Shown here: positions 871 through 40,666 of the stretch, in pieces
Numbering within the stretch: position 1 is the stretch's first letter
Layout of the letters: every line of letters begins with the position of its first letter
NCBI GenBank assembly: GCA_016280525.1
Contig: JAEEGW010000194.1
Coordinates: forward strand, 1 to 40,666
From: Clostridiales bacterium
GTDB lineage: Bacteria; Bacillota; Clostridia; Oscillospirales; CAG-272
DNA length: 40,666 bases
Direction: 5' to 3'
Made by a program: the position numbers and the translations under genes
Notes under the pieces: generated by a model
The model's input: only the letters and a program-made list of their open reading frames with translations
Told to the model about the DNA's origin: nothing
Databases searched by the model: none

Positions 871-1011
871 GTCGATCTCCTTTCCTTGATGTTATCTGTG
901 TCAATGATATCACAAAAACGGCGCATTGTCAACCCGACGACTCAGCTCAGGCGATAAAAATCACATAAATGAATATGTAAAAAAATCAGATATAACATTA
1001 AAAAAACCATC

Positions 1012-1040
1012 TTGACAAACATCTGCTCGTGCGATATAAT
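1012..1040 (+). promoter_or_regulatory. Sigma-70-type promoter belonging to a relic of a sister element
   Basis: TTGACA (1012-1017), a 17-bp spacer, then TATAAT (1035-1040). The block 1011..~1160 aligns by eye with 31556..~31705 of the main island. Confidence 0.6.
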
Positions 1041-1045
1041 GTGCT

Positions 1046-1059
1046 CGAACAGACGTTCT
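1046..1059. promoter_or_regulatory. LexA-type (Cheo/SOS) box in the relic promoter
   Basis: CGAACAGACGTTCT has the GAAC-N4-GTTC form and lies immediately downstream of the -10. It occupies the same position as box 2 at 31592..31605. Confidence 0.5.
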
Positions 1060-1086
1060 AATATCATTTTATCGGGGGGAATATAG

Positions 1087-1185
1087 TTGACAGAAAGCAA
1101 GATCGAACTGTCAAAAGAGGACATAGACGAATTAAAATCGTTTTTCAAAAAGAATAATATTTTCAATACTGATCTAACGGGATAA
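1087..1185 (+). pseudogene. Truncated 5' fragment of a homologue of the 31635..32567 gene
   Basis: A TTG-initiated 32-codon ORF, MTESKIELSKEDIDELKSFFKKNNIFNTDLTG*. Its first ~25 residues match MTENKIELSQEDVAELKSFFEKNDI of the island gene. Homology stops near 1163. Confidence 0.65.
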
Positions 1186-1207
1186 TATAAGCCCCTATGT
1201 AGATAAA

Positions 1208-1252
1208 AACACCGCATATCCTGCGATCTTGCAAGATATGCGGTGTTATTTT
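1208..1252 (+). terminator. Terminal hairpin/terminator of the relic element
   Basis: A 13-bp stem, AACACCGCATATC (1208-1220) pairing with GATATGCGGTGTT (1235-1247), followed by ATTTT. The block 1197..1251 aligns with 37812..37866 at the right end of the main island. Confidence 0.6.
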
Positions 1253-1292
1253 GGTGCGGGTGACAAGAATTGAACTTGCACAGCCTTGCGAC
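1252..1292 (-). other. 3' fragment of a different tRNA gene (T-arm + acceptor + CCA), possibly Leu-like; att remnant of the relic
   Basis: The reverse complement reads ..GTCGCAAGGCTGTGCAAGTTCAATTCTTGTCACCCGCACCA, with a T-arm GCAAG/TTCAATT/CTTGT and a 3' acceptor CACCCGC-A-CCA. I could not find a matching 5' acceptor strand (CACCCGC on the + strand) to the right, so it is not a complete tRNA. The extent is approximate. Confidence 0.45.
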
Positions 1293-1412: not shown

Positions 1413-2513
1413 TCAATCTTCAAAATCAACGTCGCCAAAGGGAAATTCGATTCCGGACATGTTTTTCACCTTTTCAACATATGCCCCGAATCGCTCAGAA
1501 TTCCGGATGCGGTCAAATGCGTGATTTTGAATGTGACACAGAATATAGTCGCGGTTATGGTGTGTGTACGCAAGATCGCGATTATAGACAATCTCATTTA
1601 AAAATGGATTATTCTCATATCTATGTTCACCGAGAGGAAGGTTATCTTCAAACAGGGCTGTTTCGTACCATTTGTCCAACACCTCGAAGGTTTTGTCGTC
1701 ATTTCCGATGGATGCGCAGCACTCTGCGAGGTGTGTATAAAGAGCCATATAAACATAGCTGATCCACGCTTTGTCTCCAAGATAAGTTAGATCAAGGATC
1801 TTTTCAGCAGTTTCGTAGGCGAATATTCGGGTCTCCATGTCAGGGAATTTCATGTTCATAACAGCCCATGCCATGCCTTCACCGTAATATTTAAAAACCT
1901 GTTGGCACCAATAATTTTTCTTTTCATAACCATCAATCTTTGACAGCATTTCCGCTTTGAGCGTACCCCAATCACCGCCAATGTTTGCAATACGGAGAGC
2001 GTTTTCGGAATCGCGAAGACAGTTATAAATATGATGCAGAGCTTCCATTGTTCGGCTCCTAAGAGCGTTATCAGTGCTTTCATCCATAACTTTTTCGTAA
2101 AATTCTGCGGCTTTTTTACAATGGCAAATATAATTTTCATCGTCATAGGCCTTTGCACAGTAGAAGTGCGTTTGCGCAATTTCAAAATGTATAGTGCTAT
2201 TGTGGGGATATCTCGCGTACAGTTTCATCCATGCCTCAAGCGCATCTTCGTTTGCTGTTTCTAGAGCATCGCAGTATTTTCTCGTTTCTTCAATTTCTTT
2301 TTCCATGCCGTCCGGGCTGATTCCGAAAAGAACGTCAGCCGATACGCCAAAAAGTGCCGAAAGAGGTACAATGAGTGAAACATCAGGAGAGCAGATTTCC
2401 ATTTCCCATTTTGACACTGCCTGCGCCGATATATTCAGTTTGGCCGCAAGATCTTCCTGCGTCATACCGCGCTCCTTACGGAGCTTTCTGATGTTTTGTC
2501 CAAGGGTAGTCAT
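1413..2513 (-). CDS. XRE-family HTH transcriptional regulator with a long helical/TPR-like C-terminal domain (RNPP-like architecture)
   Basis: 366-aa ORF with RBS AAAGGAGAAAAATT before the ATG. The N-terminus LGQNIRKLRKERGMTQEDLAAKLNISAQAVSKWE is a classic Cro/C1-type HTH. The remaining ~300 aa are helical and rich in repeated aromatic/Ala pairs. Confidence 0.85.
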   Translation of the reverse strand: MTTLGQNIRKLRKERGMTQEDLAAKLNISAQAVSKWEMEICSPDVSLIVPLSALFGVSADVLFGISPDGMEKEIEETRKYCDALETANEDALEAWMKLYARYPHNSTIHFEIAQTHFYCAKAYDDENYICHCKKAAEFYEKVMDESTDNALRSRTMEALHHIYNCLRDSENALRIANIGGDWGTLKAEMLSKIDGYEKKNYWCQQVFKYYGEGMAWAVMNMKFPDMETRIFAYETAEKILDLTYLGDKAWISYVYMALYTHLAECCASIGNDDKTFEVLDKWYETALFEDNLPLGEHRYENNPFLNEIVYNRDLAYTHHNRDYILCHIQNHAFDRIRNSERFGAYVEKVKNMSGIEFPFGDVDFED

Positions 2514-2814: not shown

Positions 2815-2820
2815 TTTTTG

Positions 2821-2866
2821 TGGTCGGAGTGAGAAGATTTGAACTTCCGGCCTCTTGGTCCCGAAC
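2821..2866 (-). repeat. attL: displaced 46-bp 3' segment of tRNA-Pro
   Basis: TGGTCGGAGTGAGAAGATTTGAACTTCCGGCCTCTTGGTCCCGAAC is identical to 37867..37912. Sequence diverges immediately on both sides. Confidence 0.85.
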
Positions 2867-6148: not shown

Positions 6149-6161
6149 AGGAGAAAAGAAA

Positions 6162-23564: not shown

Positions 23565-25278
23565 TAGCGTAACGAAAATAGGTAACGAGGTGTTCTGGGG
23601 TTGTAGGAACCTTTCTAACATGGCAATAGGAAACGGAGTAACGGAAATAGGTGATTCTAAGTTCTCTTATTATACCGGTCTTAAGAGCGTTATATTGTCG
23701 GACAGTATTACATCTATTGGCAATCGTGCGTTCGAAGGCTGCAGCAGTCTTACAAGTGTGACGATACCGGATAGCGTAATAACAATAGGCAAAGAAGCGT
23801 TCTGGGGTTGCAGCAGCCTCACAAAAGTAACGATAGGAAGCGGTGTAACAGAAATAGGTGATTCTGCGTTCTCTCATTGCAGCAGTCTTAAGAGCGTTAC
23901 GATACCGAACAGCGTAATGAAAATAGGCGGCGCTGCCTTTTTCGGTTGCCGCAGTCTTACAAACGTAACGATAGGAAACGGGGCAGTGATAATAGGTTAC
24001 TCTGCATTCAAAGGATGCAATAAGCTTGAAAGCATAACTTTACCAGAGAGCAAAAATCTGTCAAGGTTGGCTGAAGAGTGTAATGATTACGATCCGCTCT
24101 GTCGTGCTGCAACTGAAGAGCAAATGGCGGAGCTTATAAAAGCGGTGGCAAAATGGGACAGATATAATAAAGAAGCCTTTTATGTATCATATATGATAAG
24201 CGACACACGCGCGGCGATACTGCTTGCGGAAAAGCGAAAGGAACTTGATAAATACGCGGATATGCGCGGGATGACGGCGGATGAGGTGCGTGACAGACTG
24301 CTTTCAGATTTCGGACTTGACGCCGATGGATGTAAAGAATATGACCTCGGAAACACCGTAGTGAAAGTCAAAATGCTGCCCGATTTCACGTTTGCTGTGG
24401 ATCTGCCGGACGGCAAGATCTCAAAATCGCTGCCGAAAAAAGGCGCAGATGAGAAAAAGTTCAAAGAAGCGGATAAAGATTTTTCGGAAATGAAGAAAAA
24501 CGTGAAAAAGGTTTGGAAAAACCGTTCCGATCTGCTGTTATCCGATTTTGTGAGCGGTAAAAAACGCGCCGCGTCTTATTGGAAAAAGACTTACACGGGC
24601 AACCCGGTGCTTCGCGGCGTAGCAAAGCTTATAGTATGGGAGCAGAACGGCAAATACTTCACACTCGCTGACGGCGGTACGATCGGATCGGACGGTTCTC
24701 CGTATGAACTTACAAAAGAATCAGTCCGTTTGGCACACCCGTTGGAAATGAGCAAAGACGATGTCACGTCGTGGCAGAAATACTATACCGATCGCGGACT
24801 CAAACAGCCGTTTGCACAGATATGGGAGCCCGTACATAAGCCTGAGAATATAAAGTCTGACAGATATAAAAATTGTCCGATACTGTTCTTTGCGCTGCAG
24901 GGAGCGACAAAACACGGCTTTAATGAGAAACTTAACATCCCCGGATGCACGATCAAAACGGAATGGAAATCAGAAAAAGCGGCAAACGGTAATTCGGTGA
25001 GTTATTGCAATATTCTTGATTTCAATATTGAAAAATACAGCCGCGCCGTAAATCACGCCGTCGCATATCTCGACCGCACGACAGTTCTCGGACGTATCGC
25101 AAAGGACGATTTAAGCGTGATGGATTACGTTGAAGGCAGCAATATCGCGCAGATCACCGACTATATCGAAGCCGCGTCAAACGCAAAAGCAGTAAACGTT
25201 CTCGCCGCTCTTATGGAATACAAAAACAAAACTTACCCCGATTTCGATCCCATGGCGGAATTCACACTTGAATGGTAA
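23422..25278 (+). CDS. Cytoplasmic LRR protein fused to a DUF4132-like C-terminal domain (close paralogue of the 3518 product)
   Basis: 618 aa with ~8 LRR units. The C-terminal ~410 aa are highly similar to the 3518 product over its length (my rough estimate is three quarters or more identical): LPKKGADEKKF..LIVWEQNG..AHPLEM..WQKYY..KQPFAQIWE..EYKNKTYPDFDPMAEFTLEW. Confidence 0.85.
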   Translation: MSDFVIENGVLIKYTGKDSDVVIPDGVTSISWRAFEGCSSLTSVTIPDSVTKIGNEVFWGCRNLSNMAIGNGVTEIGDSKFSYYTGLKSVILSDSITSIGNRAFEGCSSLTSVTIPDSVITIGKEAFWGCSSLTKVTIGSGVTEIGDSAFSHCSSLKSVTIPNSVMKIGGAAFFGCRSLTNVTIGNGAVIIGYSAFKGCNKLESITLPESKNLSRLAEECNDYDPLCRAATEEQMAELIKAVAKWDRYNKEAFYVSYMISDTRAAILLAEKRKELDKYADMRGMTADEVRDRLLSDFGLDADGCKEYDLGNTVVKVKMLPDFTFAVDLPDGKISKSLPKKGADEKKFKEADKDFSEMKKNVKKVWKNRSDLLLSDFVSGKKRAASYWKKTYTGNPVLRGVAKLIVWEQNGKYFTLADGGTIGSDGSPYELTKESVRLAHPLEMSKDDVTSWQKYYTDRGLKQPFAQIWEPVHKPENIKSDRYKNCPILFFALQGATKHGFNEKLNIPGCTIKTEWKSEKAANGNSVSYCNILDFNIEKYSRAVNHAVAYLDRTTVLGRIAKDDLSVMDYVEGSNIAQITDYIEAASNAKAVNVLAALMEYKNKTYPDFDPMAEFTLEW

Positions 25279-25304
25279 AAATAAAATAAAGGAGAAAATA
25301 AAAA

Positions 25305-28644: not shown

Positions 28645-31406
28645 GACCGTTAAAACTTACTATGTCCGCTTTCGGACCATATGCTAAAGAAGTGACGGTA
28701 AACCTTGAAAAGCTTGGTTCAAACGGGTTATACCTTATCACTGGCGACACCGGAGCTGGTAAAACAACGATATTTGATGCCATAACGTATGCGCTTTACG
28801 ATGAAGCCAGCGGAGATACGCGCGACAAGAATATGCTGAGATCAAAATATGCCGAGGAGAATACTCCTACGTTTGTAATTCTTGAATTTGAATACGGCGG
28901 AAGAATATACACTGTCAGAAGAAATCCGGATTATGAACGTAAATCCTCACGCGGCGACGGTATGACGGTCGAAAAAGCCAATGCGGAATTGACCATGCCG
29001 GACGGCAAAGTGGTAACAAAACTGAGAGACGTCAACAGATCGATTATTGAAATAATGGGTATTGACAAACACCAGTTTTCACAAATTGCCATGATAGCTC
29101 AGGGAGATTTCCGCAAGCTTCTTAATGCTTCCACCGATGAGCGCAAAGCAATATTTCAAAGACTTTTCCGTACACAGTGTTATTATCAGCTTCAGCAGAC
29201 TTTAAAAAACGATGTGTCCGTTTTAAGAAAAACATACGATGAACTAAAAATACGCATAGGACAATATATCCGCGGCATTTCATGCAGCGATAACAGCGTT
29301 TTGAAGGTCGACGCGGACAAAGCAAAAAACGACAGTCTGACGTTGACGGAAACAATATTGCTTATAGACAGGATTATTAAAGAAGATACGCAAATAGACA
29401 GACGTTTAAGCGACGAACTTAAAAAAGCCGACGACGAGCTTATGGAAATAAGTAAGACCGCGGCACTTATAGAAGAACGCCGCAAAAAAGAAAATGCCGT
29501 TACCGCGCTGAAGATAGATCTTATAAAAGAATTGCCTAAGCTTGATACGGCAAAACTCACTCTTGATACAGAGTCGTCAAAAAGGTTTGAGGCGGATCAG
29601 CTTGCTAAAGACGCTGCGGCGCTTGAAACGACAAGACCGGACTATGATGAACTGGATAAAAAACGCATAGATGCAGCAGCTCTTGAAAGCGAAATAAAAC
29701 GTCTTACAACTGAAATCTCCGAAAGGTCGATAGTGCATGCAAATGCAAAAGCCGAGCTTGAACGTATAAGATCTGAATTATCGGATCTATCCGGTATAGA
29801 AGCCGAAAAAGCCGATCTGGATATCGTTTCAAACGATATATCGCTGCAGTCCGAAGCTGTTGCAAAGCTCGAGAAAATGATAAGCGAATACGAGACGTCA
29901 AAAGCAGCGCTTGTACGCTTACAAGATGAATATATCCGTCTGCGTGACGATTCAGAAGCAAAAAAAATCGAATACAACGAAAAATATCTAGCATATATAG
30001 ATGGGCAGGCAGGAGTTATTGCCGAAGGACTTGAAGACGGTAAACCTTGCCCGGTATGCGGTTCTTTGACCCATCCCAATCCGGCACACAGATCTGAAAA
30101 CGCTCCGACAAAAGAAGAACTTGATATTTTGAAGACCAGATCTGAGTCAGCGGAAAGACGGGCTACGGAAGCAAGTGAAAAATCCGGAGCGCAGCAGTCA
30201 GTTGTTACAGAGAAAAAGACCGTGCTTGAGAATACGGCAAAAGAAACTCTCGACACAAATATATTTGATGAAATCGTACCGGCGCTGACAGATAAGAAAA
30301 CAGAGCTTTTGTATAAGAGAGTTGAGCTTTCAAAAAAACTGGATGAGGTCCGCGGCAGAATAGTCAAGAAATCCACGCTTGAAAGATCGGTACCGGAAAA
30401 AGAAAAAAACATACAGTCGCTTTATGAACTGCTCAACGGTATGACAAAAATGCTTACCGAAAAAACGGCGATTTGCGATAGTATGACAACACGCGTAAGA
30501 GAACTGTCATCAAAGCTTTTATTCGGATCGGCGCGTGAGCTTGAAGCTCATATAGGCGATCTTATGCAAAAAAAGAGTACTCTTGAAAGGGCATTTGAAA
30601 AAGCTACTGCCGATTATAACGAACAAGACAAGCTCGTAAGCTCGCTCAGAGCAAGGATTGCCGAGATAGAAACTTCGCTGTCGGATAAGATCGATGTTGA
30701 TATACACGCTGTTGCCGGAAGAAAAAACGAACTTGCTCAGAAAAAAGAAAAGATCAGTTCCGAACTTCGTAATATTGCTGCGAGACTGAGTAATAACGGT
30801 AATATAAAAACTGCGCTTGATGATAGCACAAACAGCATTGAAGAGATCGAAAAGAAATTCAGTATGGTAAAATCTTTGTCAGATACCGCGAACGGAAATT
30901 TGACAGGCAAAGAAAAGTTGATGCTCGAGACGTATATCCAGACCACGTATTTTGACAGAATAATAGACCGCGCAAACCTGAGATTGTTGATTATGTCGGA
31001 CGGACAGTATGAACTTAAAAGATGTGAGGAAGCTGAAAATAACAGAAGCCAGAGCGGTCTTGATCTTAACGTTATAGATCATTATAACGGAACGGAAAGA
31101 AGCGTTAAAACATTATCCGGCGGCGAATCGTTCAAGGCGTCTCTTTCGCTTGCGCTAGGATTATCTGACGAGATCCAGTCTTCCGCAGGCGGCGTAAAGC
31201 TTGATACGATGTTCGTGGACGAAGGTTTCGGTTCACTTGACGATGAGTCTCTCGATCAAGCGATGAAAGCACTTTCAAACCTTGCAAACGGCAATCGTCT
31301 GGTTGGCATCATATCACACGTTGCCGAGCTTAAAAACAGAATAGATAAACAGATTCTCGTTACAAAAGACCGCGCAGCAGGCAGCGCTGTAAAAATAGTT
31401 GGGTGA
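28641..31406 (+). CDS. sbcC: SbcC/Rad50-family ATPase
   Basis: 921 aa. Walker A ITGDTGAGKTTIFDAI, a long coiled coil with zinc hook KPCPVCGS, signature LSGGESFKASLSLAL and Walker B TMFVDEGFGSLD. Confidence 0.9.
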   Translation: MRPLKLTMSAFGPYAKEVTVNLEKLGSNGLYLITGDTGAGKTTIFDAITYALYDEASGDTRDKNMLRSKYAEENTPTFVILEFEYGGRIYTVRRNPDYERKSSRGDGMTVEKANAELTMPDGKVVTKLRDVNRSIIEIMGIDKHQFSQIAMIAQGDFRKLLNASTDERKAIFQRLFRTQCYYQLQQTLKNDVSVLRKTYDELKIRIGQYIRGISCSDNSVLKVDADKAKNDSLTLTETILLIDRIIKEDTQIDRRLSDELKKADDELMEISKTAALIEERRKKENAVTALKIDLIKELPKLDTAKLTLDTESSKRFEADQLAKDAAALETTRPDYDELDKKRIDAAALESEIKRLTTEISERSIVHANAKAELERIRSELSDLSGIEAEKADLDIVSNDISLQSEAVAKLEKMISEYETSKAALVRLQDEYIRLRDDSEAKKIEYNEKYLAYIDGQAGVIAEGLEDGKPCPVCGSLTHPNPAHRSENAPTKEELDILKTRSESAERRATEASEKSGAQQSVVTEKKTVLENTAKETLDTNIFDEIVPALTDKKTELLYKRVELSKKLDEVRGRIVKKSTLERSVPEKEKNIQSLYELLNGMTKMLTEKTAICDSMTTRVRELSSKLLFGSARELEAHIGDLMQKKSTLERAFEKATADYNEQDKLVSSLRARIAEIETSLSDKIDVDIHAVAGRKNELAQKKEKISSELRNIAARLSNNGNIKTALDDSTNSIEEIEKKFSMVKSLSDTANGNLTGKEKLMLETYIQTTYFDRIIDRANLRLLIMSDGQYELKRCEEAENNRSQSGLDLNVIDHYNGTERSVKTLSGGESFKASLSLALGLSDEIQSSAGGVKLDTMFVDEGFGSLDDESLDQAMKALSNLANGNRLVGIISHVAELKNRIDKQILVTKDRAAGSAVKIVG

Positions 31407-31482
31407 AGTGACAGAATCGTTGAAAGCGTAATTAACGTCATTTATCTCAGTTATCTATTAGATAGAATGGTCTTGAAAAAAT

Positions 31483-31526
31483 CTCCGGCTCTGAATTGCA
31501 AATATTCAGAGCCGGAGTCTTTTTTC
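31483..31526 (+). terminator. Strong rho-independent (bidirectional-looking) terminator closing the cargo block
   Basis: A 14-bp perfect stem, CTCCGGCTCTGAAT (31483-31496) pairing with ATTCAGAGCCGGAG (31504-31517), followed by TCTTTTTTC. An A-run precedes it. Confidence 0.8.
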
Positions 31527-31556
31527 TGTAAATCTGAAGAAAATTAATATATCCTC

Positions 31557-31585
31557 TTGACAAACATATGTTCGTGTGATATAAT
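31557..31585 (+). promoter_or_regulatory. Consensus sigma-70-type promoter of the mobility module
   Basis: TTGACA (31557-31562), a 17-bp spacer, then TATAAT (31580-31585) with TG at -15/-14. Confidence 0.75.
31561..31574. promoter_or_regulatory. LexA-type box 1 (within the promoter spacer)
   Basis: CAAACATATGTTCG has one mismatch to the Gram-positive consensus CGAAC-N4-GTTCG. Confidence 0.55.
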
Positions 31586-31591
31586 AGAACA

Positions 31592-31605
31592 CGAACATAT
31601 GTTCT
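31592..31605. promoter_or_regulatory. LexA-type box 2 (just downstream of the -10, around the expected transcription start)
   Basis: CGAACATATGTTCT has perfect GAAC-N4-GTTC half sites. Confidence 0.65.
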
Positions 31606-31634
31606 GATATCAAAATAAAAAAAGGAGAAAAAAG

Positions 31635-32567
31635 TTGACAGAAAACAAAATCGAATTATCACAAGAGGACGTAGCCGAATTAAAATCGTTTTTCGAAAAG
31701 AACGATATCACAAGATTTGCTACGCTTGACAAAGAATATACGCTCTGCGGAAAGAAAAGCGATATATTTGCAAAGGCAAAAAAGTATTTGTCAGAAAAAT
31801 GGGATGCAAATCTCCCGGAGCTCGGAATCAAAAGGAATATGAAAAACTACTCCGCCGTATATCCGGTAAATCTGATTAAAGACACGGATGCCGGATATTT
31901 TGCGGAGCAGGTGGCTGATATCTTTTCCGATGAAGAAAAATACCGTAATGCGATCGATATATTTTTTGAAATGTATGAAGAGCCTTTGTCCGCGGGTTTT
32001 GAAGCGTACGCCGCAAAGATAAACAAGCCTGTCGAAGAATTGACGGACGATGAAATATGTTGTGTCATTGATCAGATCGCAGATACTATAGACGGCGAAC
32101 TGACGAACGTAACTATGATAGGACAAAAGGTGCCGGAGATATTCGGCGTATCGAAAAATACAAAGGCTCATGAAGACTACAGCAAAAAAGCAAAAAATCC
32201 CGACAGAACGAATTTTGAAAAAAGCTGGTATCACAGCGATACAAAGATCGGCACAATGCTTTCGCTTGAAGAACTGCAGGAAAAGGACGAAAAGAACGGA
32301 ACCGACGTAATTGCAAACGCACGCAGTGTTTTTGATGACGGTAGTCAGAGCGCTGCCGATGCTGACGCAGAGTGTATGAAACTGCGCAACGCTTTCGCAG
32401 ATACGCTTGACAGCACGGATCTTGCTATATTCGAAATGCGGGAAAAGGGCATGAAGGATAAAGAGATCGCCGCCGCGCTGAAATACAAAACGCACAGCGC
32501 CGTTGTTAAAAGACTGGCGAAGATGAAAGAAAAGTATATGGAATTCAGAAAAACATATACGTTTTGA
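31635..32567 (+). CDS. Sigma-70 region-4-like HTH protein (regulator of the mobility module)
   Basis: TTG start after AAAAGGAGAAAAAAG. 310 aa. The C-terminus LDSTDLAIFEMREKGMKDKEIAAALKYKTHSAVVKRLAKMKEKY looks like a sigma region 4 / LuxR-type HTH. I did not recognise the N-terminal part. Confidence 0.65.
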   Translation: MTENKIELSQEDVAELKSFFEKNDITRFATLDKEYTLCGKKSDIFAKAKKYLSEKWDANLPELGIKRNMKNYSAVYPVNLIKDTDAGYFAEQVADIFSDEEKYRNAIDIFFEMYEEPLSAGFEAYAAKINKPVEELTDDEICCVIDQIADTIDGELTNVTMIGQKVPEIFGVSKNTKAHEDYSKKAKNPDRTNFEKSWYHSDTKIGTMLSLEELQEKDEKNGTDVIANARSVFDDGSQSAADADAECMKLRNAFADTLDSTDLAIFEMREKGMKDKEIAAALKYKTHSAVVKRLAKMKEKYMEFRKTYTF

Positions 32568-32825
32568 CGTTTTTTTCATAAAGCCGGGAACAATTTGCAG
32601 ATCTCGCGTTGATATATATATATGGAGGGAGACAGCAAAGCAATAATTACCGTCGGGGTAAGCCCGGCGGTTTTGATTTGCTGAAAATCTTTTATCATAC
32701 AGGAGGTGTTGTGAATTGGTTTAATAACTGATATTCCAGCCAAAGAAAAAGCGAAAATCAAAAATCGTATAAGGAGGTACAGTAATACGATACAGTCAAA
32801 AATCAAAAGCTACGATGAACTGCCG

Positions 32826-32999
32826 TTGTTCATCAACGCAAAAACACTTGCCGATACGCTCGGCATATCTATCTCTTCCGCATATGAGCTGATGACGGAA
32901 AAAGGATTCCCGTCGATAAGGATCGGTAAACGTCTTGTCGTACAAAAGGAAAAATTCATATCGTGGATAAACGGAAAGAGCGGAGGAAATAAATATTGA
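32826..32999 (+). CDS. Excisionase-like MerR/HTH_17-type DNA-binding protein
   Basis: Not in the track (under 60 aa from a canonical start). The frame is open from 32715. Its translation ..LFINAKTLADTLGISISSAYELMTEKGFPSIRIGKRLVVQKEKFISWINGKSGGNKY* is a typical Xis/HTH_17 pattern. The first canonical start is TTG at 32826 and has no good RBS. A strong AAGGAGG at 32771-32777 suggests an earlier non-canonical start, so the 5' end is uncertain. Confidence 0.55.
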   Translation: MFINAKTLADTLGISISSAYELMTEKGFPSIRIGKRLVVQKEKFISWINGKSGGNKY

Positions 33000-33484
33000 G
33001 TTATGAAAACGTCCGAGATCATTTCTTTCCCGTGCCGAACGATATATTCATACTCGGTCTTACGGCGGGAGAAGTCGCAGTGTATTCATATCTGTCATAC
33101 TGCGAAGACAGACGCACGTACAAATGTCATCCGTCGTATAAAACGATAGGCAAATCGCTTCATATGTCAAAGAATACCGTGTCAAAGTACGTGCGTATGC
33201 TTGAAGATAAACGTTTGATAAAAACGGAAACGACTCAGTTATACAGAAAAGGTATGCTGCAGAACGCAAATCTCAGGTACACCATACTGCCGGTAAAGGA
33301 AGCGGTTAAGCTGTATTACGACAGACAGTACGAAAAAGCGGAAGAAGATATGAGATTAAGAAAAATTGATGAAAAAATCGTCAATTGGGAGAAAAATCGT
33401 CCCCGTCCGATTTGCAAGCAGGATAAAGCCGCGGCTCGCGCCGCGCCGGATCACACCGTCCGGCAGTGCCGGTCGGGATATTAA
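32996..33484 (+). CDS. Winged-helix DNA-binding protein (replication-initiator/regulator-like)
   Basis: TTG start overlapping the previous stop, with GGAGG at 32982-32986. 162 aa. FPVPNDIFILGLTAGEVAVYSYLSYCEDRRTYKCHPSYKTIGKSLHMSKNTVSKYVRMLEDKRLI is the pattern of small wHTH Rep-like proteins of Firmicutes mobile elements. Confidence 0.6.
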   Translation: MSYENVRDHFFPVPNDIFILGLTAGEVAVYSYLSYCEDRRTYKCHPSYKTIGKSLHMSKNTVSKYVRMLEDKRLIKTETTQLYRKGMLQNANLRYTILPVKEAVKLYYDRQYEKAEEDMRLRKIDEKIVNWEKNRPRPICKQDKAAARAAPDHTVRQCRSGY

Positions 33485-33554
33485 AGGATAAAAAAGCACG
33501 TTCTATACGAAAAACGCATCAAATCTCATATATCCCGCGTAACTCAATTATACG

Positions 33555-33581
33555 GGGCAGTCCCATTAAAGAGGACTGCCC
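33555..33581. promoter_or_regulatory. Perfect 9-bp inverted repeat upstream of the relaxosome genes (oriT candidate)
   Basis: GGGCAGTCC (33555-33563), a 9-nt spacer, then GGACTGCCC (33573-33581). It ends 2 bp before the AAAGGAGG RBS of the RHH gene and is not followed by a T-run. Confidence 0.35.
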
Positions 33582-33595
33582 GAAAGGAGGCTAAT

Positions 33596-34021
33596 TTGGC
33601 AGAAAAAGAAAAAAACTGTGGTACGATGAAGGATCACAGCATCAGATTTCCCGATGAAATATGGAAGAAGATAGGCGGTATGCTCGACGCCGCCGACGTT
33701 AAAAACAACAATGAATTCGTACGCGAAGCCGTTTCGTTCTATATCGAATATCTATCCCGTCCCGACAGTTTCAGATTCATAACGCCCGCGCTTGAATCCG
33801 TAATAGACGGAAAGATAAAGGACAGCGAGGGGAGAATAAACAGAATGCTGTTCAAACTTGCCGTGGACGTTGCGTTCCTTTCGGAGATCATCGGTATCAA
33901 TTATGAATACAGCTACGATGATCTGACGGCATGGAGAAACGAATGTATAAATACGGTAAGGGCGACAAACGGCAGTCTGAGTATCATAGACAGTATGACA
34001 AAAGAGAAAGGTGACCAATAA
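33596..34021 (+). CDS. Ribbon-helix-helix-type relaxosome accessory protein (MobC-like)
   Basis: TTG start after AAAGGAGG. 141 aa. The N-terminal segment HSIRFPDEIWKKIGGMLDAADVKNNNEFVREAVSFYIEYL fits a beta-strand then helix-helix (CopG/RHH) layout. The stop lies 2 nt before the relaxase start. Confidence 0.55.
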   Translation: MAEKEKNCGTMKDHSIRFPDEIWKKIGGMLDAADVKNNNEFVREAVSFYIEYLSRPDSFRFITPALESVIDGKIKDSEGRINRMLFKLAVDVAFLSEIIGINYEYSYDDLTAWRNECINTVRATNGSLSIIDSMTKEKGDQ

Positions 34022-34023
34022 AT

Positions 34024-35130
34024 ATGCCGAGACTGATACTGAAAGCTCCGTACTATTCTCCGGTATCAAGAAGCGCTAACGGAGGCGGCAGAGGAAGATA
34101 CGCCGAATATATTGCCACACGTGAAGGCGCGGAGATCATAAAAGACCGCGGCGGCATGGTCTCGTATATCGGAGAGCGAAAAGGCTCGAACGGTTTGTTT
34201 TCAGACGCGGGAGTACCGATAGTGCTGTCAAGAATATCGGATGAGGTAAATAACCATCCCGGAAATATATGGGGCTTCATCGTATCCCTCCGACGTGACG
34301 ACGCGGAGAGGTACGGATACAACAACGCAGAATCGTGGATGAATCTTATCCGTTCGCACAGAAACGATATAGCGAAACAGATGCATATATCGCCCGAAAA
34401 CTTCAGATGGTACGCCGCGTATCATCAGAAAGATACTCATCCTCACGTTCATATACTCGCCTGGTCGGACAAGCCCGGCGAGCCGTATCTGTCAAGAAAA
34501 GGTATTGAGAATATCAAAAGCACGTTTGCAAATGACATTTTCAGACAGGAGCTTTACACGTTGTACAGCCGGCAGAGCGCCGTAAGAGACAGAATAAGGC
34601 AGACGTACAGAGACAGGCTTCAAGAGCTGAAAGAAAAGCGTCACCTGGCGGATAACGGTATCGCGCTTATGCTGTCTGATCTATCAGTCAGGCTAAAAAA
34701 GGTAAAAGGCAAAAAGCAGTACGGTTATCTCAGCAAAGATATGAAAAAGCGCGTGGATGAAATAGTAAAGGCGATATCGGATCAGCCGGATATACGCGAA
34801 ATGTATGATCTGTGGTATGAGCTTCAGTGTGAGAAATACAGAACGTACACGGACGCGACTCCGGCTAAAATACCGCTTGAAGAAAACAAAGAATTCAGAG
34901 CAATAAGAAACGCGGTGATCAACTCTGCAAAGGCTATAGGTCAGACAAACGGAACGAAGGCTGATCGTCAGCCGAAGGATTACGCCGCGGCGATCATTAA
35001 GTTTGCGTCGTCGTTGATTTGTGAAAAGTCACCGACGTTCTCGTACGATGAAGAATATGACGATATTGATAAAAAGCTGAGAAGAGAGATAAGGATGGTC
35101 AAAAACGGGGAACCTGTGTTGAGTATGTAA
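34024..35130 (+). CDS. MobL-like relaxase / mobilization protein
   Basis: 368 aa. The N-terminus APYYSP..GGGRGRYAEYIATREGAE is typical of MobL-type relaxases as I recall them. A histidine-rich motif AAYHQKDTHPHVHILAWS (H.D...PH.H) is present. Confidence 0.7.
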   Translation: MPRLILKAPYYSPVSRSANGGGRGRYAEYIATREGAEIIKDRGGMVSYIGERKGSNGLFSDAGVPIVLSRISDEVNNHPGNIWGFIVSLRRDDAERYGYNNAESWMNLIRSHRNDIAKQMHISPENFRWYAAYHQKDTHPHVHILAWSDKPGEPYLSRKGIENIKSTFANDIFRQELYTLYSRQSAVRDRIRQTYRDRLQELKEKRHLADNGIALMLSDLSVRLKKVKGKKQYGYLSKDMKKRVDEIVKAISDQPDIREMYDLWYELQCEKYRTYTDATPAKIPLEENKEFRAIRNAVINSAKAIGQTNGTKADRQPKDYAAAIIKFASSLICEKSPTFSYDEEYDDIDKKLRREIRMVKNGEPVLSM

Positions 35131-35198
35131 CTTTTCATATAATCTCTGGACTTGTGAAAAAAACGTGGTATTGTATAACAGTGAAAGGATGTGATAAT

Positions 35199-36362
35199 TT
35201 GGCAAAAAGAAGACCGAACGGTGACGGCATGGTCAGGCGCCGCAAAGACGGAAGATGGGAAGGCAGGATAATCGCCGGTCATAAAAGCGACGGCAGACCG
35301 ATATACAAAAGCGTGCTCGCAAAAACGCAGAAGGAACTGAGCGAAAAGCTGAATGAGCTTAAAACGGCGCATAACGGCGTCGAGCTGACGGAAGGCGGAG
35401 ATATATCGCTTTCGGAATGGCTTGATAAATGGATGTCCGAATACAAAAGCAGGACGGTTCGCCCGACAACGTATAAGTCCTATGTGAATTTGATCGAAAG
35501 ACATATAAAACCGGTAATAGGGAAGAAGAAACTGTCCCGTTTATCTGAGACGGACGTTCAGAAGTTCTATAACGATAAACTGAACGACGGGTTATCGGCG
35601 TCGTCGGTAAGGGCGATCCATATGGTACTTCATCAGGCTGTGAACGCCGCACTGTGCTGTGGAGCCGTGCTTCACGATCCGACGGACGGAGCCGTACTGC
35701 CGAAAAGAGAAGTTTTTGAGAAAAGCGTTCTTTCAAAGCCACAGACAGATGCCCTTCTGAATAATCTGAAGGACGATCCGATTTGGTACGATTTTTTCTG
35801 TACGGAAGTTATGACTGGCATGAGACGCGGCGAGATATGCGCTCTTAAATGGGAGGATTTTGACGAGAACAACGGAACGCTTCATATACGCAGATCGGTG
35901 CACTACGAGCACGGAGAGCCGGTGACGGGAGATACGAAAACGAGCGAGGGAAACAGAACGATAGTATTGCCGGCTACTGTTTTGGAGATGTTGATAGACA
36001 GAAAGAAACGGATAGGCGGAGAATGGATCTTCCCCGATCCGTTCAAAGCAAAAAGACCCGTTATACCGCAGTCGGCATATATAAGGCTGCAGAAAGCTCT
36101 GAAGGAGGCGGGTCTGCCGCATATACGGTTTCACGATCTGCGTCACAGCTTTGCAACCATGGCGGCGTCAAACGGCGTCGATCCGAGAACGCTTGCCGGA
36201 GTACTCGGGCATACCAACGCGTCATTTACGCTTGACGTCTATACTCACGTAACGACGGATATGCAGAAAAACGCGGCAGAAAAGATAGGCATCTATATCA
36301 CGGATGTATTGGGAGGTGATCTTAAGCCGTGGCAAAAAGACGAAAAAAAGGCGACGGTCTGA
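35199..36362 (+). CDS. Tyrosine recombinase/integrase 1
   Basis: I prefer the TTG at 35199 so that the N-terminus (M)AKRRPNGDGMVRRRKDGRWEGRI parallels integrase 2. The catalytic set is TGMRRGEI (R), HDLRHSFAT (H..R) and GHTNASFTLDVYTH (H..Y). Confidence 0.85.
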   Translation: MAKRRPNGDGMVRRRKDGRWEGRIIAGHKSDGRPIYKSVLAKTQKELSEKLNELKTAHNGVELTEGGDISLSEWLDKWMSEYKSRTVRPTTYKSYVNLIERHIKPVIGKKKLSRLSETDVQKFYNDKLNDGLSASSVRAIHMVLHQAVNAALCCGAVLHDPTDGAVLPKREVFEKSVLSKPQTDALLNNLKDDPIWYDFFCTEVMTGMRRGEICALKWEDFDENNGTLHIRRSVHYEHGEPVTGDTKTSEGNRTIVLPATVLEMLIDRKKRIGGEWIFPDPFKAKRPVIPQSAYIRLQKALKEAGLPHIRFHDLRHSFATMAASNGVDPRTLAGVLGHTNASFTLDVYTHVTTDMQKNAAEKIGIYITDVLGGDLKPWQKDEKKATV

Positions 36363-37756: not shown

Positions 37757-37779
37757 GTTTGTGGTCAGATATGTGGTCA
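37757..37779 (+). promoter_or_regulatory. Candidate arm-type integrase binding site (right arm)
   Basis: GTTTGTGGTCAGATATGTGGTCA is identical to 2976..2998 and lies 88 bp inside attR. Confidence 0.5.
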
Positions 37780-37822
37780 GAACAAAATCCGATATGAACA
37801 GGTAGTGCAAAATGTAGATAAA

Positions 37823-37867
37823 AACACCGCATATCAGGCAGCAATGCAAGATAAGCGGTGTTATTTT
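37823..37867 (+). terminator. Terminal hairpin: terminator of the integrase operon, and on the other strand of the regenerated tRNA-Pro
   Basis: AACACCGCATATC (37823-37835) pairs with GATAAGCGGTGTT (37850-37862) with one mismatch, followed by ATTTT. On the minus strand the hairpin is followed by TTTTTATC. Confidence 0.65.
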
Positions 37868-37912
37868 GGTCGGAGTGAGAAGATTTGAACTTCCGGCCTC
37901 TTGGTCCCGAAC
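37867..37912 (-). repeat. attR: 46-bp core inside the intact tRNA-Pro
   Basis: Identical to 2821..2866. Confidence 0.85.
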
Positions 37913-37943
37913 CAAGCGCTCTACCAAACTGAGCCACACCCCG
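37867..37943 (-). tRNA. tRNA-Pro (anticodon CGG), CCA encoded
   Basis: The reverse complement is CGGGGTGTGGCTCAGTTTGGTAGAGCGCTTGGTTCGGGACCAAGAGGCCGGAAGTTCAAATCTTCTCACTCCGACCA. It folds by hand into a cloverleaf: acceptor CGGGGTG/CACTCCG, D stem GCTC/GAGC, anticodon stem CTTGG/CCAAG with loop TTCGGGA, and T stem GGAAG/CTTCT with loop TTCAAAT. Confidence 0.9.
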
Positions 37944-37961
37944 TTTTTTCATGCGTGTGCA

Positions 37962-37990
37962 ATTATATCACAATATTTTGCATTTGTCAA
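37962..37990 (-). promoter_or_regulatory. Promoter of tRNA-Pro
   Basis: On the minus strand: TTGACA (rc of 37985-37990), a 17-bp spacer, then TATAAT (rc of 37962-37967) with an upstream TG. It is about 19 nt upstream of the mature tRNA 5' end. Confidence 0.6.
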
Positions 37991-38084
37991 GTCCTTATGA
38001 AAAAAAGAATCATTTTTCCTATATCACTTATTTTTTGCGTATGCACGGATTGTGCATAATATACATAAGATATTTGTTTTAATA

Positions 38085-38113
38085 TTGACAAATAAAAAAT
38101 TATATGATAAAAT
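38085..38113 (+). promoter_or_regulatory. Putative promoter of the dockerin-esterase gene
   Basis: TTGACA (38085-38090), a 17-bp spacer, then TGATAAAAT (TAAAAT at 38108-38113). Confidence 0.45.
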
Positions 38114-38142
38114 TAAAAAAAACTTACGGGAGTTGTTTGAAT

Positions 38143-40008
38143 ATGAAAAAGGTCATTTCTTTTATGATCGTTATCGTTTTGGTATCGGCGATATGTATCG
38201 GTTCGGCCATTTACGCCGCCGCCGTGCCGGGTGACATGAACGGCGACGACGAGGTCAACAACAAGGACGTTGTGACTCTGTTCAGATACGTTTCCGCCGG
38301 CATCACAGCGGAAGACGAGTCGATGTACGATATAAACGGCGATAACGAGGTGAACAACAAAGACGTTGTCGCTCTGTTCAGAGCGGTAAGCTCCGACGTG
38401 ACACTGACCGAAACGGAAGAGGACACGGAAGGCGTGCCATCCGAAGAAGTGACCGAGCCGGAAGAATCCGAAGATCTGACGGAAACGGATGAAAGCACGG
38501 AAGAAATATCCGAGGAGTCGTCCGAAGAGGAAACGGAAGAAAACTCCGAGGGTGTAGACGGTGAATTTGAAATAATACCGGACGATACGGCGGAACTCAG
38601 CATCCCGCGCGTATTCGGCGATCATATGGTCATACAGCGCGACCAAGTGATAACAGTCTGGGGCACCTCGAACATGGAAGGCGCGAAGATACGCGGATTT
38701 TTCATGGGGGACGAGGCGCGCGGCACCGTAAGAGACGGCAAATGGGAAATAGCGTTTGCTCCGAAGAGCGCGACCGCAATACCGCAGAAGCTGACGGTTG
38801 AGGACAACTGCGGAAACAAGATAGAAATACAGGATATTCTCGTAGGCGACGTGTGGGTCATGGGCGGTCAGTCCAACGCCAAAGCCACGGTAAGCATGCT
38901 GAAACTTAACTTTCCGGTAGACAAATCCGTGCCTATGCGCGTATTCATGCAGGATGAAACAGACGTCTGGAACAACAGAGAAGCCGCGAAGCAGCCCTGT
39001 GAAGACGTAATAAATCCGAGCCGCAAATGGAGAACGGGCAGCAAATCCGCAGCGTACTCCTTCTCTGCTCTCGGCTGGTTCATTGGATACAGGCTCGCGC
39101 AGGAGACCGGCGTTCCGCAGGGCGTCGTCTGTATGGCAGCCGGCGCGGCGAGCATAGCCGAGCTTATGCCGATTGAGCTGGTAAATCAGTTCGGTTACAC
39201 GAAGGGCATATACGTAGGTCCCGCGGAGCATTACAACGGACTTATGCATCCGTTTTTGAAGATGAAATTCAAAGCCATGGTATTCTTCCAGGGCGAAGCC
39301 GAGGGAGGAACGAACTCCGTGCCGACCTCATATAATTACGCCCGCGATCTTGAAGCTCTTATTGCAGAGTACAGAAACAGATGGGGCTTTGATTTCCCGG
39401 TATACAACGTACAGATCTCCAACTATACGGGCGAGGAATGCGAAACGTACTGGACTCACGTAGGCGAAGTAAGAGCGCAGCAGTACGACGCGTATAAAGT
39501 CATGACCGGGACAAGGCTCACGCCGTCCTTCGACCTGGGCTCAAAGTCGACCGACCCGGACGGCGCGCATTCGCCTTACAAAAAAGAACTTGCGGACAGG
39601 ATAGTCGATCTGGCTCTTGCGGATCTTTACGGAACGGGCAGCGCGGACGACGCGCTTGCGCCCGAGCCCGAGCAGATAACCGTCGTAAGTACAACAGATA
39701 CTGAAAAAGTAATAGAAATTAAATTTGCAAACGCAGGCGAAGGACTCGTTTCATTAAGCGGCACGTCAGAGGCGTCCGGATTCGTCTGCGGCAAGGCCGT
39801 TCATCCATACAGCTCCACGTGTCAAAACGTAAGCGGCGAGATCATATCGGCCGACACGGTGCGCGTAACGGTCCCGGCTGACGCCGTTTACATAGGATAC
39901 GCGTGTATGCAGCTGACCGCGACGAGCGACGACGTGCTGATACCGCAGCTTTACAATTCACACGATCTGCCGCCGCTCGCATTCTATCTTCAGTTTGAAG
40001 AACAGTGA
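38143..40008 (+). CDS. Secreted dockerin-containing SASA-family (sialate O-acetylesterase-like) carbohydrate esterase
   Basis: I prefer the ATG at 38143 because it gives a signal peptide, MKKVISFMIVIVLVSAICIGSAIYAAA. Two dockerin repeats are present (DMNGDDEVNNKDVVTLFRYVS / DINGDNEVNNKDVVALFRAVS), followed by an acidic E/T/S linker. The catalytic region has GDVWVMGGQSNA and FFQGEAE. The antisense ORF 38113..39249 is a GC-rich shadow. Confidence 0.8.
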   Translation: MKKVISFMIVIVLVSAICIGSAIYAAAVPGDMNGDDEVNNKDVVTLFRYVSAGITAEDESMYDINGDNEVNNKDVVALFRAVSSDVTLTETEEDTEGVPSEEVTEPEESEDLTETDESTEEISEESSEEETEENSEGVDGEFEIIPDDTAELSIPRVFGDHMVIQRDQVITVWGTSNMEGAKIRGFFMGDEARGTVRDGKWEIAFAPKSATAIPQKLTVEDNCGNKIEIQDILVGDVWVMGGQSNAKATVSMLKLNFPVDKSVPMRVFMQDETDVWNNREAAKQPCEDVINPSRKWRTGSKSAAYSFSALGWFIGYRLAQETGVPQGVVCMAAGAASIAELMPIELVNQFGYTKGIYVGPAEHYNGLMHPFLKMKFKAMVFFQGEAEGGTNSVPTSYNYARDLEALIAEYRNRWGFDFPVYNVQISNYTGEECETYWTHVGEVRAQQYDAYKVMTGTRLTPSFDLGSKSTDPDGAHSPYKKELADRIVDLALADLYGTGSADDALAPEPEQITVVSTTDTEKVIEIKFANAGEGLVSLSGTSEASGFVCGKAVHPYSSTCQNVSGEIISADTVRVTVPADAVYIGYACMQLTATSDDVLIPQLYNSHDLPPLAFYLQFEEQ

Positions 40009-40048
40009 GCTCGTATTCTGATATGCACCGGCAAAACAGGAGGTTCTT

Positions 40049-40666
40049 ATGAAAAAAACAATATCTCTGCTTATAGCGGTTTTGATGGCTGCGGCCTTAT
40101 GCATAGGCTCTGCGGTAACCGTCGCCGCGCTTAAAGGCGACGTGAACGGCGATAACGAGGTAAACAACAAGGACGTTGTGACTTTGTTCAGATACGTTTC
40201 AAGCAGCAGCAAAGAAGAAGACGAGTCCGTATACGATTTTAACGGTGATACCGAAGTAAACAACAAAGACGTCGTTGCCCTGTTCAGAGCCGTAAGCGAA
40301 GTTCAGACTTCCGAAGGATCCGGGACCGAAGAGGAAACGGAAGAAATAATAGATGAAGAATTCACCGTAACGCCGGATCCGGACGCGGAGCTTTCCGTAC
40401 CGCGCGTAATAGCGGAGCACATGGTCCTGCAGCGCGATACCGAATTAAAGATATGGGGCACATCAAACAGGAACGGCGCACTCGTGCGCGGTCAGTTTAT
40501 GGGCGAGGAAGCTATCGGCCGCGTCAAAGACGGAAAATGGGAAATTAAGTTTTCACCGAAATCCGCGACGTTTGACCCGCAGACGCTCGTCGTTGAAGAC
40601 AGCTGCGGAAACAGACTAGAATATACCGATATACTCGTAGGCGACGTATGGCTCATAGGCGGTCAG
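40049..40666 (+). CDS. Second dockerin + SASA-family esterase paralogue, N-terminal part; continues past the right edge
   Basis: Not in the track because it has no stop in the window. The ATG follows ACAGGAGG. The translation is MKKTISLLIAVLMAAALCIGSAVTVAALKGDVNGDNEVNNKDVVTLFRYVS..FNGDTEVNNKDVVALFRAVS..GDVWLIGGQ, open for 206 codons to the window end. Confidence 0.8.
   Translation, partial: MKKTISLLIAVLMAAALCIGSAVTVAALKGDVNGDNEVNNKDVVTLFRYVSSSSKEEDESVYDFNGDTEVNNKDVVALFRAVSEVQTSEGSGTEEETEEIIDEEFTVTPDPDAELSVPRVIAEHMVLQRDTELKIWGTSNRNGALVRGQFMGEEAIGRVKDGKWEIKFSPKSATFDPQTLVVEDSCGNRLEYTDILVGDVWLIGGQ

Follow-up and report, generated by a model that had tools for sequence, protein, structure and literature searches.

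The 40,666-nucleotide contig JAEEGW010000194.1 of a Clostridiales bacterium (assembly GCA_016280525.1), analysed here at its full length and referred to as the window, carries a genomic island of ~35 kb whose mobility genes are headed by a consensus promoter with two LexA-type boxes. Control of this promoter (31557) by the host SOS repressor LexA is well supported in silico. The circuit that we consider likely is one in which the LexA-gated promoter drives a regulator with a sigma region-4 domain, the regulator acts on a promoter of the extracytoplasmic function (ECF) type, and the mobility of the island would thereby become SOS-inducible.

A consensus promoter with two LexA-type boxes

The left edge of the mobility module contains the following features, given with their positions in the window.

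31483..31517, plus strand: bidirectional terminator-like hairpin, 14 bp (8 GC), closing the upstream cargo operon
31557..31585, plus strand: perfect sigma-A-type promoter (TTGACA, 17-nt spacer, TGaTATAAT)
31561..31574: LexA-type box 1, CAAACATATGTTCG, in the spacer between the -35 and -10 elements
31592..31605: LexA-type box 2, CGAACATATGTTCT, at about +1 to +14
31635..32567, plus strand: gene for a 310-aa regulator with a TTG start, in which C-terminal residues 240-310 have the sigma region-4 / ECF -35-binding fold

Direct reading of 31540-31640 gave the layout CCTC-TTGACA-AACATATGTTCGTGTGA-TATAAT-AGAACA-CGAACATATGTTCT-...-AAGGAG-N7-TTG. A first-pass annotation of this DNA had described the promoter and both boxes, and all of its coordinates proved correct. 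The -35 hexamer TTGACA occupies 31557-31562 and the TG-extended -10 element TGaTATAAT occupies 31577-31585. Box 1 shares the last two bases of the -35 hexamer, where its left arm reads AAAC, and its single mismatch is forced by this overlap. Box 2, with both GAAC/GTTC arms intact, begins 7 nt past the -10 and therefore spans the expected start site. Each box matches 13 of the 14 positions of CGAACATATGTTCG, a consensus that is that of Bacillus subtilis LexA and may not be the host's (as tabulated in PMC8270828). A protein bound at either position would obstruct RNA polymerase, which fits repression on binding. The boxes are followed by a ribosome-binding site (AAGGAG) and by the TTG start codon of the regulator gene at 31635. 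The hairpin at 31483..31517, also present 5' of the boxed promoter in two related loci (L081 and L085), would shield the promoter from read-through out of the cargo operon.

The motif CGAAC-N4-GTTCG with at most one mismatch has three matches in the 40.7-kb window (0.87 expected), all of them the boxes considered here. The full 14-mer CGAACATATGTTCG with at most one mismatch has two, 31 bp apart, against 0.007 expected. When two mismatches are allowed, matches to CGAAC-N4-GTTCG sit at background (25 found, 24.9 expected), and for this reason only the near-perfect boxes are informative. Exact TTGACA-N16-18-TATAAT was found three times (at 1012, at 31557, and at 37990-37962 on the minus strand), against 0.03 expected. 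The last of these, a third perfect TTGACA-17-TGaTATAAT, lies directly 5' of tRNA-Pro(cgg).

Conservation of the boxes among relatives

Homologues of the 310-aa protein are numerous in rumen and gut Clostridia. The comparison set consisted of close homologue loci (46-88% protein identity) and 80 genomic relatives. A genome scan with the single 310-aa protein returned no relatives, which a later profile scan did recover, and megablast of 31300-33600 against phage and plasmid collections gave no match. The upstream alignment comprised 10 promoters in 8 distinct variants, counting a truncated relic at the left end of the window (described below).

The arms of box 2 (GAAC and GTT) are the same in every one of the 10 promoters; apart from the GAAC..A.GTT block of this box, only the start codon and parts of the -10 show no variation. 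The N4 centre occurs in five versions (ATAT, AGAC, ATAC, GCAT and AGAT), the flanks of the box vary too, and its distance from the -10 shifts by 4-5 nt as a result of indels. The arms are better kept than the -35 and -10 hexamers, and the sequence 5' of the -35 is unrelated. Fixed arms around a free centre are the footprint expected of a LexA operator, for which recent common descent alone could not account. Box 1 is retained only in the closest relatives (L084-L087) and has been lost in L001 and L089. Across the 1.02 Mb of the 89 related loci, strict GAAC-N4-GTTC boxes number 11, and all 11 lie just 5' of genes of this family.

These counts bear on the possibility that the palindromes, as chance or relic sequence, regulate nothing. 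LexA-like matches with at most two mismatches are indeed as numerous in the window as in shuffled sequence, but the near-perfect boxes are restricted to the boxed promoter and the relic, the arms of box 2 are invariant over 8 divergent variants despite the surrounding indels, and every strict box in the 1.02 Mb sits at this one gene family. This explanation was already disfavoured, and we regard it as highly improbable.

More distant members of the family have other sequences at the same place. In the ~299-aa clade (about 43% identical, from human-gut Oscillospiraceae), a search of the upstream regions found no LexA box. Six loci of this clade (L003, L004, L008, L015, L016 and L035) have a palindrome, ACTGT-N7-ACAGT, abutting a TGnTATAAT -10 5' of the regulator gene, at about 40-20 nt 5' of the -10. 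Separate clades may thus plug separate operators into one regulatory node. In the ~282-aa clade, an ECF-like GGAACA-N18-CGTTAA lies 5' of the regulator gene (L042-L047, L050-L053, L058-L060, L066 and L073-L079), a position that suggests autoregulation in that clade. A conserved LexA box was also considered for the ~282-aa and Mogibacterium/Anaerovoracaceae relatives, but these gave none, or only inconsistent half-matches that were not counted: in the Mogibacterium/Anaerovoracaceae group L070 alone reaches GAAC-N4-GTTC, and its near relatives show TGTAC or TGGAC variants. In L061, TATAAT is followed after 7 nt by TGAACATTCGTTCG, 5' of a family member that is 24% identical and has no clear start codon, so this locus lends weak support only.

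The boxed promoter and the regulator are also found together in differing surroundings. In L083 (10001-12203) they are followed by small open reading frames (ORFs) without relaxase or integrases, in L084 (1474-3889) their partners, encoded on the opposite strand, are a PriCT_1 gene and a Sigma70_r4_2 gene, and in L087 (193-2678) they precede a Gp49/HTH_3 toxin-antitoxin-like pair. The promoter and regulator therefore look like a cassette that recombines as a unit.

Relation to a clostridial lexA/yneA promoter

When metagenomes were scanned for the 29-nt core promoter, with TTGACAAACATNTGTTCGTGNGATATAAT as the pattern, one match was obtained, on contig L094, where it lies between divergent lexA and a LysM yneA-like gene. 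The product of this lexA has the domains LexA_DNA_bind (1.6e-24) and Peptidase_S24 (3.5e-35), and is 100% identical to LexA of a Candidatus Mediterraneibacter species. The core promoters of L094 and the window are identical at 27 of 29 positions and have the spacer box in the same register. L094 has another box, AGAACAGATGTTTG, past the -10 and in all five LexA-type boxes within 105 nt; its control region has no 310-aa-type regulator nearby.

The divergent lexA/yneA region is the classic autoregulated SOS node of B. subtilis. It is conserved in Clostridium thermocellum (Clo1313_1449/1450), in which the LexA motif obtained by DNA affinity purification sequencing equals that of B. subtilis (PMC8457756), and the LexA motif of Clostridium difficile is GAAC-N4-GTT(C/T) (PMC4234289). 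Taken together with the match in L094, these motifs indicate that the design of the window promoter is that of a real SOS promoter of gut Clostridia. Capture of such a promoter and convergence on it are not distinguishable, since the -35, the -10 and the box fix almost every position of the 29-mer.

A regulator with a sigma region-4 domain

Residues 240-310 of the regulator were modelled with AlphaFold at a predicted local distance difference test score (pLDDT) of 87-91, and match the -35-binding domain of Mycobacterium tuberculosis SigD (3vfz; probability 0.97, template modelling score 0.81, root-mean-square deviation 1.2, 57 aligned columns). Weak Sigma70_r4_2 matches were obtained for 33 of 40 family members. 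Sigma region 2 (Sigma70_r2) gave no match in any of the 40, even at E <= 1, and the protein is therefore classed as a region-4-domain regulator and not as a sigma factor. The earlier description of it as sigma-like holds for region 4 and finds no counterpart in region 2. The N-terminal two thirds belong to no known family (weak DUF7626). Neither Foldseek nor a PDB sequence search with the whole protein returned a significant match, and a literature search on DUF7626 found nothing. A scan of viral contigs for the family gave one weak partial match and no evidence of phage-borne members. Across clades the gene heads a recombination and relaxosome module, with tyrosine integrases in the window and NikA, ParB and a serine recombinase in the 299-aa clade.

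The palindromes might instead bind an element-encoded protein, most likely the 310-aa regulator itself acting as a dimeric LuxR/GerE-like helix-turn-helix (HTH) protein, in which case the likeness to LexA boxes would be coincidental. The boxes are linked to the regulator gene even where all else in the locus differs, Orf7 and Orf8 of Tn916 activate their own promoter (PMC5812530), and other palindromes occupy the same node in relatives (ACTGT-N7-ACAGT in L003, L004 and L015). Against this, the recognition helix KTHSAV.KR is invariant family-wide, yet the boxes occur in one clade and the ~299-aa relatives are without them, which argues that the box is not the regulator's own operator. Box 2 also varies in the manner of LexA boxes, with the flanking C/G kept as well as the arms; the same promoter-plus-box design stands in a real lexA/yneA region that has no such regulator; and two 13/14 matches to CGAACATATGTTCG are far beyond chance. 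We therefore think it unlikely that a protein of the element binds these boxes in place of LexA.

An ECF-type promoter and a hairpin precede xis

Between the regulator gene and the remainder of the mobility module lies a leader with the following features.

32587..32614, plus strand: candidate ECF-type promoter, GGAACA-N16-TTGATA, 19 nt past the regulator stop codon
32649..32671, plus strand: GC-rich 9-bp hairpin followed by TTTTGATTT (U-tract), terminator- or attenuator-like, in the leader of the mobility genes
32826..32999, plus strand: Xis/AlpA-type excisionase gene (HTH_17), with a frame open from 32787 and an uncertain true start

The sequence GGAACAWTTT occurs once in the window. A motif consisting of GGAACAtTTT, ~12 nt and TTGT, followed by a GAGGGA block, was found 19-160 nt 3' of the regulator stop codon in 15 non-redundant loci: the window, L001, L003, L004, L010, L011, L013, L015, L017, L026, L030, L033, L038, L057 and L061. 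The regulators of these loci are only 24-48% identical to that of the window, and the motif (GGAACAtTTT-N12-TTGT) always points toward recombinase and relaxosome genes. GGAACA is present on the plus strand in 32 of 46 downstream regions, whereas the background is 0.14 per 300 nt; in ~27 of the 32 the motif is complete. This recurrence behind divergent regulators suggests that the ECF-type promoter is probably the regulator's target. CGTT had been considered as its -10 element, but the consensus from the comparison, GGAACA-N16-TTGT, was preferred.

The hairpin at 32649-32671 has an RNA fold of -31.8 kcal/mol (z = -5.1) and is conserved in 5 elements. The whole stretch between regulator and xis (32567-32826), which holds tiny ORFs, is 91% identical in five elements, exceeding the regulator coding sequence, and could contain an attenuator or an origin of transfer (oriT). 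A good ribosome-binding site for xis is present at 32772-32779, with no canonical start codon near it. Because the ECF-type promoter and the terminator-like hairpin both precede xis, control of excision is most likely indirect, through a cascade. The first-pass annotation had instead proposed a single transcription unit with direct LexA control of excision; these intervening elements speak against that proposal and make a two-step circuit more likely.

The proposed circuit

In the circuit that we favour, host LexA on both operators would hold shut the strong housekeeping-sigma promoter (31557-31605). DNA damage would lead to RecA-stimulated self-cleavage of LexA, which would free the promoter and allow the 310-aa regulator (31635-32567) to be made. 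The regulator, whether sigma-like or an activator, would then switch on the GGAACA-N16-TTGATA promoter 19 nt behind its own gene. This promoter, aided by some transcription that runs on through the leader hairpin, would express xis, the relaxase gene and the two integrase genes, the hairpin serving as an extra checkpoint or as a curb on read-through. In this way the 35-kb tRNA-Pro island would be excised and mobilized upon SOS induction without encoding a repressor of its own. The analysis establishes the sequence features and how they are conserved, the genes present and the limits of the island; from these we infer LexA binding, the target of the regulator and induction, and the step from the regulator to the ECF-type promoter from comparison only.

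Several observations weigh against this circuit. The LexA motif of the host is assumed from other Clostridia; in sequence, position, conservation and identity of design with lexA/yneA, the two palindromes behave as the earlier proposal had it, like LexA (DinR) operators of the Firmicutes type (Cheo boxes). The 27/29 match to a lexA/yneA promoter comes from a member of the Lachnospiraceae and not from this host, and convergence could explain it. The palindromes always accompany the regulator gene, a context that taken alone would be compatible with autoregulation. The regulator has no detectable sigma region 2 and its whole model is poor (pLDDT 60), so that it might instead act as a conventional activator or in some other way. 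GGAAC-N14-19-CGTT is unremarkable within the window (3 found, 2 expected), and the weight of the ECF-type promoter comes from the relatives only. Finally, a terminator-like hairpin stands between this candidate promoter and xis.

The boxes could also be true LexA operators while the regulator serves another SOS role, directed at the defence-like cargo or at host genes, with the mobility genes controlled independently. The terminator-like hairpin parts the regulator from xis, in L084 and L087 the genes next to the boxed cassette are unrelated ones and not integrases, the downstream module of L083 is without relaxase and integrases, and no characterised homologue reveals the regulator's function. 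On the other side, the gene stands at the head of a recombination and relaxosome module across clades, the conserved GGAACA promoter aims into the mobility module, and the relic places the boxed promoter at the left end of what is conserved in the mobile unit. A role apart from mobility is the strongest of the competing explanations, and still an improbable one.

A broader hypothesis, which we put forward tentatively and hold with less conviction than the circuit itself, is that the regulator is one of a widespread, uncharacterised group of region-4-only 'half-sigma' master activators, whose variants number in the hundreds among Clostridia of rumen and gut. In islands that carry defence genes, such proteins would stand first in the mobility module and act through a conserved ECF-type promoter. 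The activator's own promoter might then be an exchangeable input socket. In this rumen clade the socket would be occupied by a copy or perfect mimic of the host lexA/yneA SOS promoter, which would place transfer of the island directly under host LexA, and in other clades by other operators such as ACTGT-N7-ACAGT.

The island, its mobility genes and its cargo

The ends of the island and the genes downstream of xis are as follows.

2815..2866: attL, 52-nt direct repeat, a copy of the tRNA-Pro 3' end
32996..33484, plus strand: HTH_36 DNA-binding protein, 162 aa
33596..34021, plus strand: 141-aa protein with no family match, always adjoining the relaxase
34024..35130, plus strand: MobL/MobP3-family relaxase (Pfam 5.3e-29; NCBIfam MobP3 7.6e-88)
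35154..36362, plus strand: tyrosine recombinase 1, 402 aa
36329..37732, plus strand: tyrosine recombinase 2, 467 aa, a paralogue of recombinase 1 that overlaps its 3' end
37861..37912: attR, 52-nt direct repeat inside tRNA-Pro(cgg)
37867-37943, minus strand: tRNA-Pro(cgg)

The two direct repeats, identical at 50 of 52 positions, delimit an island of ~35 kb (2815-37912), which is also present on other metagenome contigs. It is predicted to be an integrative mobilizable element with the mobility module at its right end and the boxed promoter at the left edge of that module. The earlier assignment of the downstream genes to a mobility module was borne out by an HTH_17 Xis, a MobL/MobP3 relaxase and two tyrosine recombinases. 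The gene previously called Rep encodes only an HTH_36 protein. No type IV secretion system or type IV coupling protein domains were found in any large ORF of the island. Nor did Pfam detect a cI/ImmR/XRE or S24-peptidase repressor in any sizeable ORF inside it, in agreement with the earlier statement that the island has no CI/ImmR-like repressor; an XRE-type gene of 366 aa lies just outside attL.

The tandem recombinase genes share 127 nt at 71% identity near their 5' ends, and the pair is also found in L081, L082 and L086. An exact 23-nt direct repeat, GTTTGTGGTCAGATATGTGGTCA, which itself contains an internal GTGGTCA repeat, occurs at 2976-2998 and 37757-37779. The two copies, which lie within the island at ~110 nt from attL and ~80 nt from attR, are candidate arm-type integrase-binding sites. 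The G+C content is 43% in the island (2867-37860) and 51-56% in the flanks (1-980 and 37944-40666), a contrast that fits a foreign origin of the island and a host richer in G+C than the island itself.

The cargo (3518-31406) is a long plus-strand run of defence-like genes. It includes six large BspA-type LRR_5 proteins; three of these, and a seventh protein with a single LRR_5 match (6398-8761), carry DUF4132. The LRR/DUF4132 paralogues contain 69-nt periodic repeats and recombined paralogous segments (e.g. 5144-6149 vs 24274-25279). Also present are a MoxR AAA protein, a VWA/DUF2201 metallopeptidase-like protein, two DEDDh exonucleases, a SIR2/AbiH-like protein (weak LmuA), a DUF1351-RNase T protein, a protein resembling the C-terminal domain of the RNA polymerase alpha subunit, SbcD, and an SbcC/LmuB-like ATPase. 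PADLOC returned only weak LmuA/LmuB-like and DEDDh matches in the cargo, and no recognised system.

A relic of a sister element and the left flank

Two further features lie to the left of attL, outside the island.

983..1277, plus strand: relic of a sister element
1413-2513, minus strand: XRE-type gene between the relic and attL, encoding 366 aa with an XRE/RstR-like HTH at the N terminus

The relic has TTGACA-17-TATAAT at 1012-1040, CAAACATCTGCTCG at 1016-1029, CGAACAGACGTTCT at 1046-1059 and a truncated frame at 1087-1185. The first-pass annotation had read a relic copy with the downstream box at 1012..1059, and had done so correctly. Positions 983-1160 are 80% identical to 31530-31708 (the promoter and the first ~25 codons), and positions 1197-1277 are 91% identical to 37812-37892, the extreme right end of the island. 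With a promoter end fused to a right end, the relic is therefore an internally deleted sister element, and it shows that the boxed promoter is where the conserved mobile unit begins. The box in the relic had been taken as an argument for function. This argument is weak: the relic lies outside the island and is internally deleted, and a box in a dead relic reflects ancestry and not selection, so that the functional argument rests on the live homologues.

A 3' tRNA-like fragment after the relic (1246-1297) is 62% similar to the tRNA-Pro att repeat, which implies either an element with a different att or heavy decay. The 366-aa XRE protein falls in a 90% cluster of 119 members on contigs of up to 380 kb, and its gene could be a host gene or a remnant of another element.

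Comparison with known systems and significance

A close parallel in design is sgaDC of SGI1, a Salmonella integrative mobilizable element, in which LexA represses the master activator operon (PMC9927553). There, as proposed here from sequence, host LexA at the promoter of the element's activator gives a two-step cascade by which the SOS response sets off the excision and mobilization regulon without an element-encoded SOS-sensitive repressor. SGI1 belongs to Gammaproteobacteria and uses a CTG-N10-CAG box and an FlhDC-type activator (PMC9927553), whereas the present island has two GAAC-N4-GTTC boxes on a consensus promoter, a region-4 regulator and a proposed ECF-type target. The boxed promoter resembles SOS promoters of the B. 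subtilis type (lexA/yneA), in which multiple CGAAC-N4-GTTCG boxes lie over a sigma-A promoter; lexA and yneA are chromosomal SOS genes, while the promoter described here belongs to a mobile island.

A clostridial mobile element is also known to couple a control region with LexA sites to a sigma-type factor for its payload genes, namely UviA/bcn of Clostridium perfringens pIP404, which is inducible by UV and mitomycin (PMC4459074, PMC4885068). Unlike the regulator here, UviA is a complete group-5 (TcdR-family) sigma factor, and the output of pIP404 is a bacteriocin and not excision or transfer. In Tn916, as in the island, a small sigma-like/HTH regulator gene (Orf7/Orf8) lies directly 5' of xis-int, the regulator boosts transcription into the excision genes, and leader and terminator structures participate (PMC5812530). 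The input of Tn916 is tetracycline-dependent attenuation together with the Orf9 repressor and not LexA, and its likeness to the present system is one of layout.

CTXphi, coliphage 186 tum, the Gifsy antirepressors, SaPI operon I and integron integrases are further examples of LexA-controlled elements. Direct LexA control is described for GIL01 (PMC4551915), and genes of SPbeta have SOS boxes (PMC8270828). The island would share with GIL01 and SPbeta the use of host LexA as the damage sensor through boxes in element promoters. It differs from phages, satellites and integrons in being a relaxase-bearing island without phage genes, and GIL01 also needs the co-repressor gp7.

Since mobile elements that tap LexA are already well established, the advance is incremental. 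Three aspects are new: the setting is an island with a relaxase gene, inserted in a tRNA gene of uncultured rumen Clostridia; its consensus promoter with two boxes mirrors a lexA/yneA promoter; and that promoter is coupled to an uncharacterised family of region-4-domain regulators with a conserved ECF-type target. If the proposed circuit is true, DNA damage in the rumen or gut, whether from antibiotics such as fluoroquinolones, oxidative stress, phage attack or incoming conjugative DNA, would directly trigger excision and mobilization of large islands with their cargo, and the sensor in these uncultured Clostridia would be host LexA and not a repressor of the element. The circuit would then be a Gram-positive counterpart of the LexA-sgaDC circuit of SGI1, and it would provide a function and a DNA target for a common unannotated family (weak DUF7626) that heads the mobility modules of many islands from gut and rumen.

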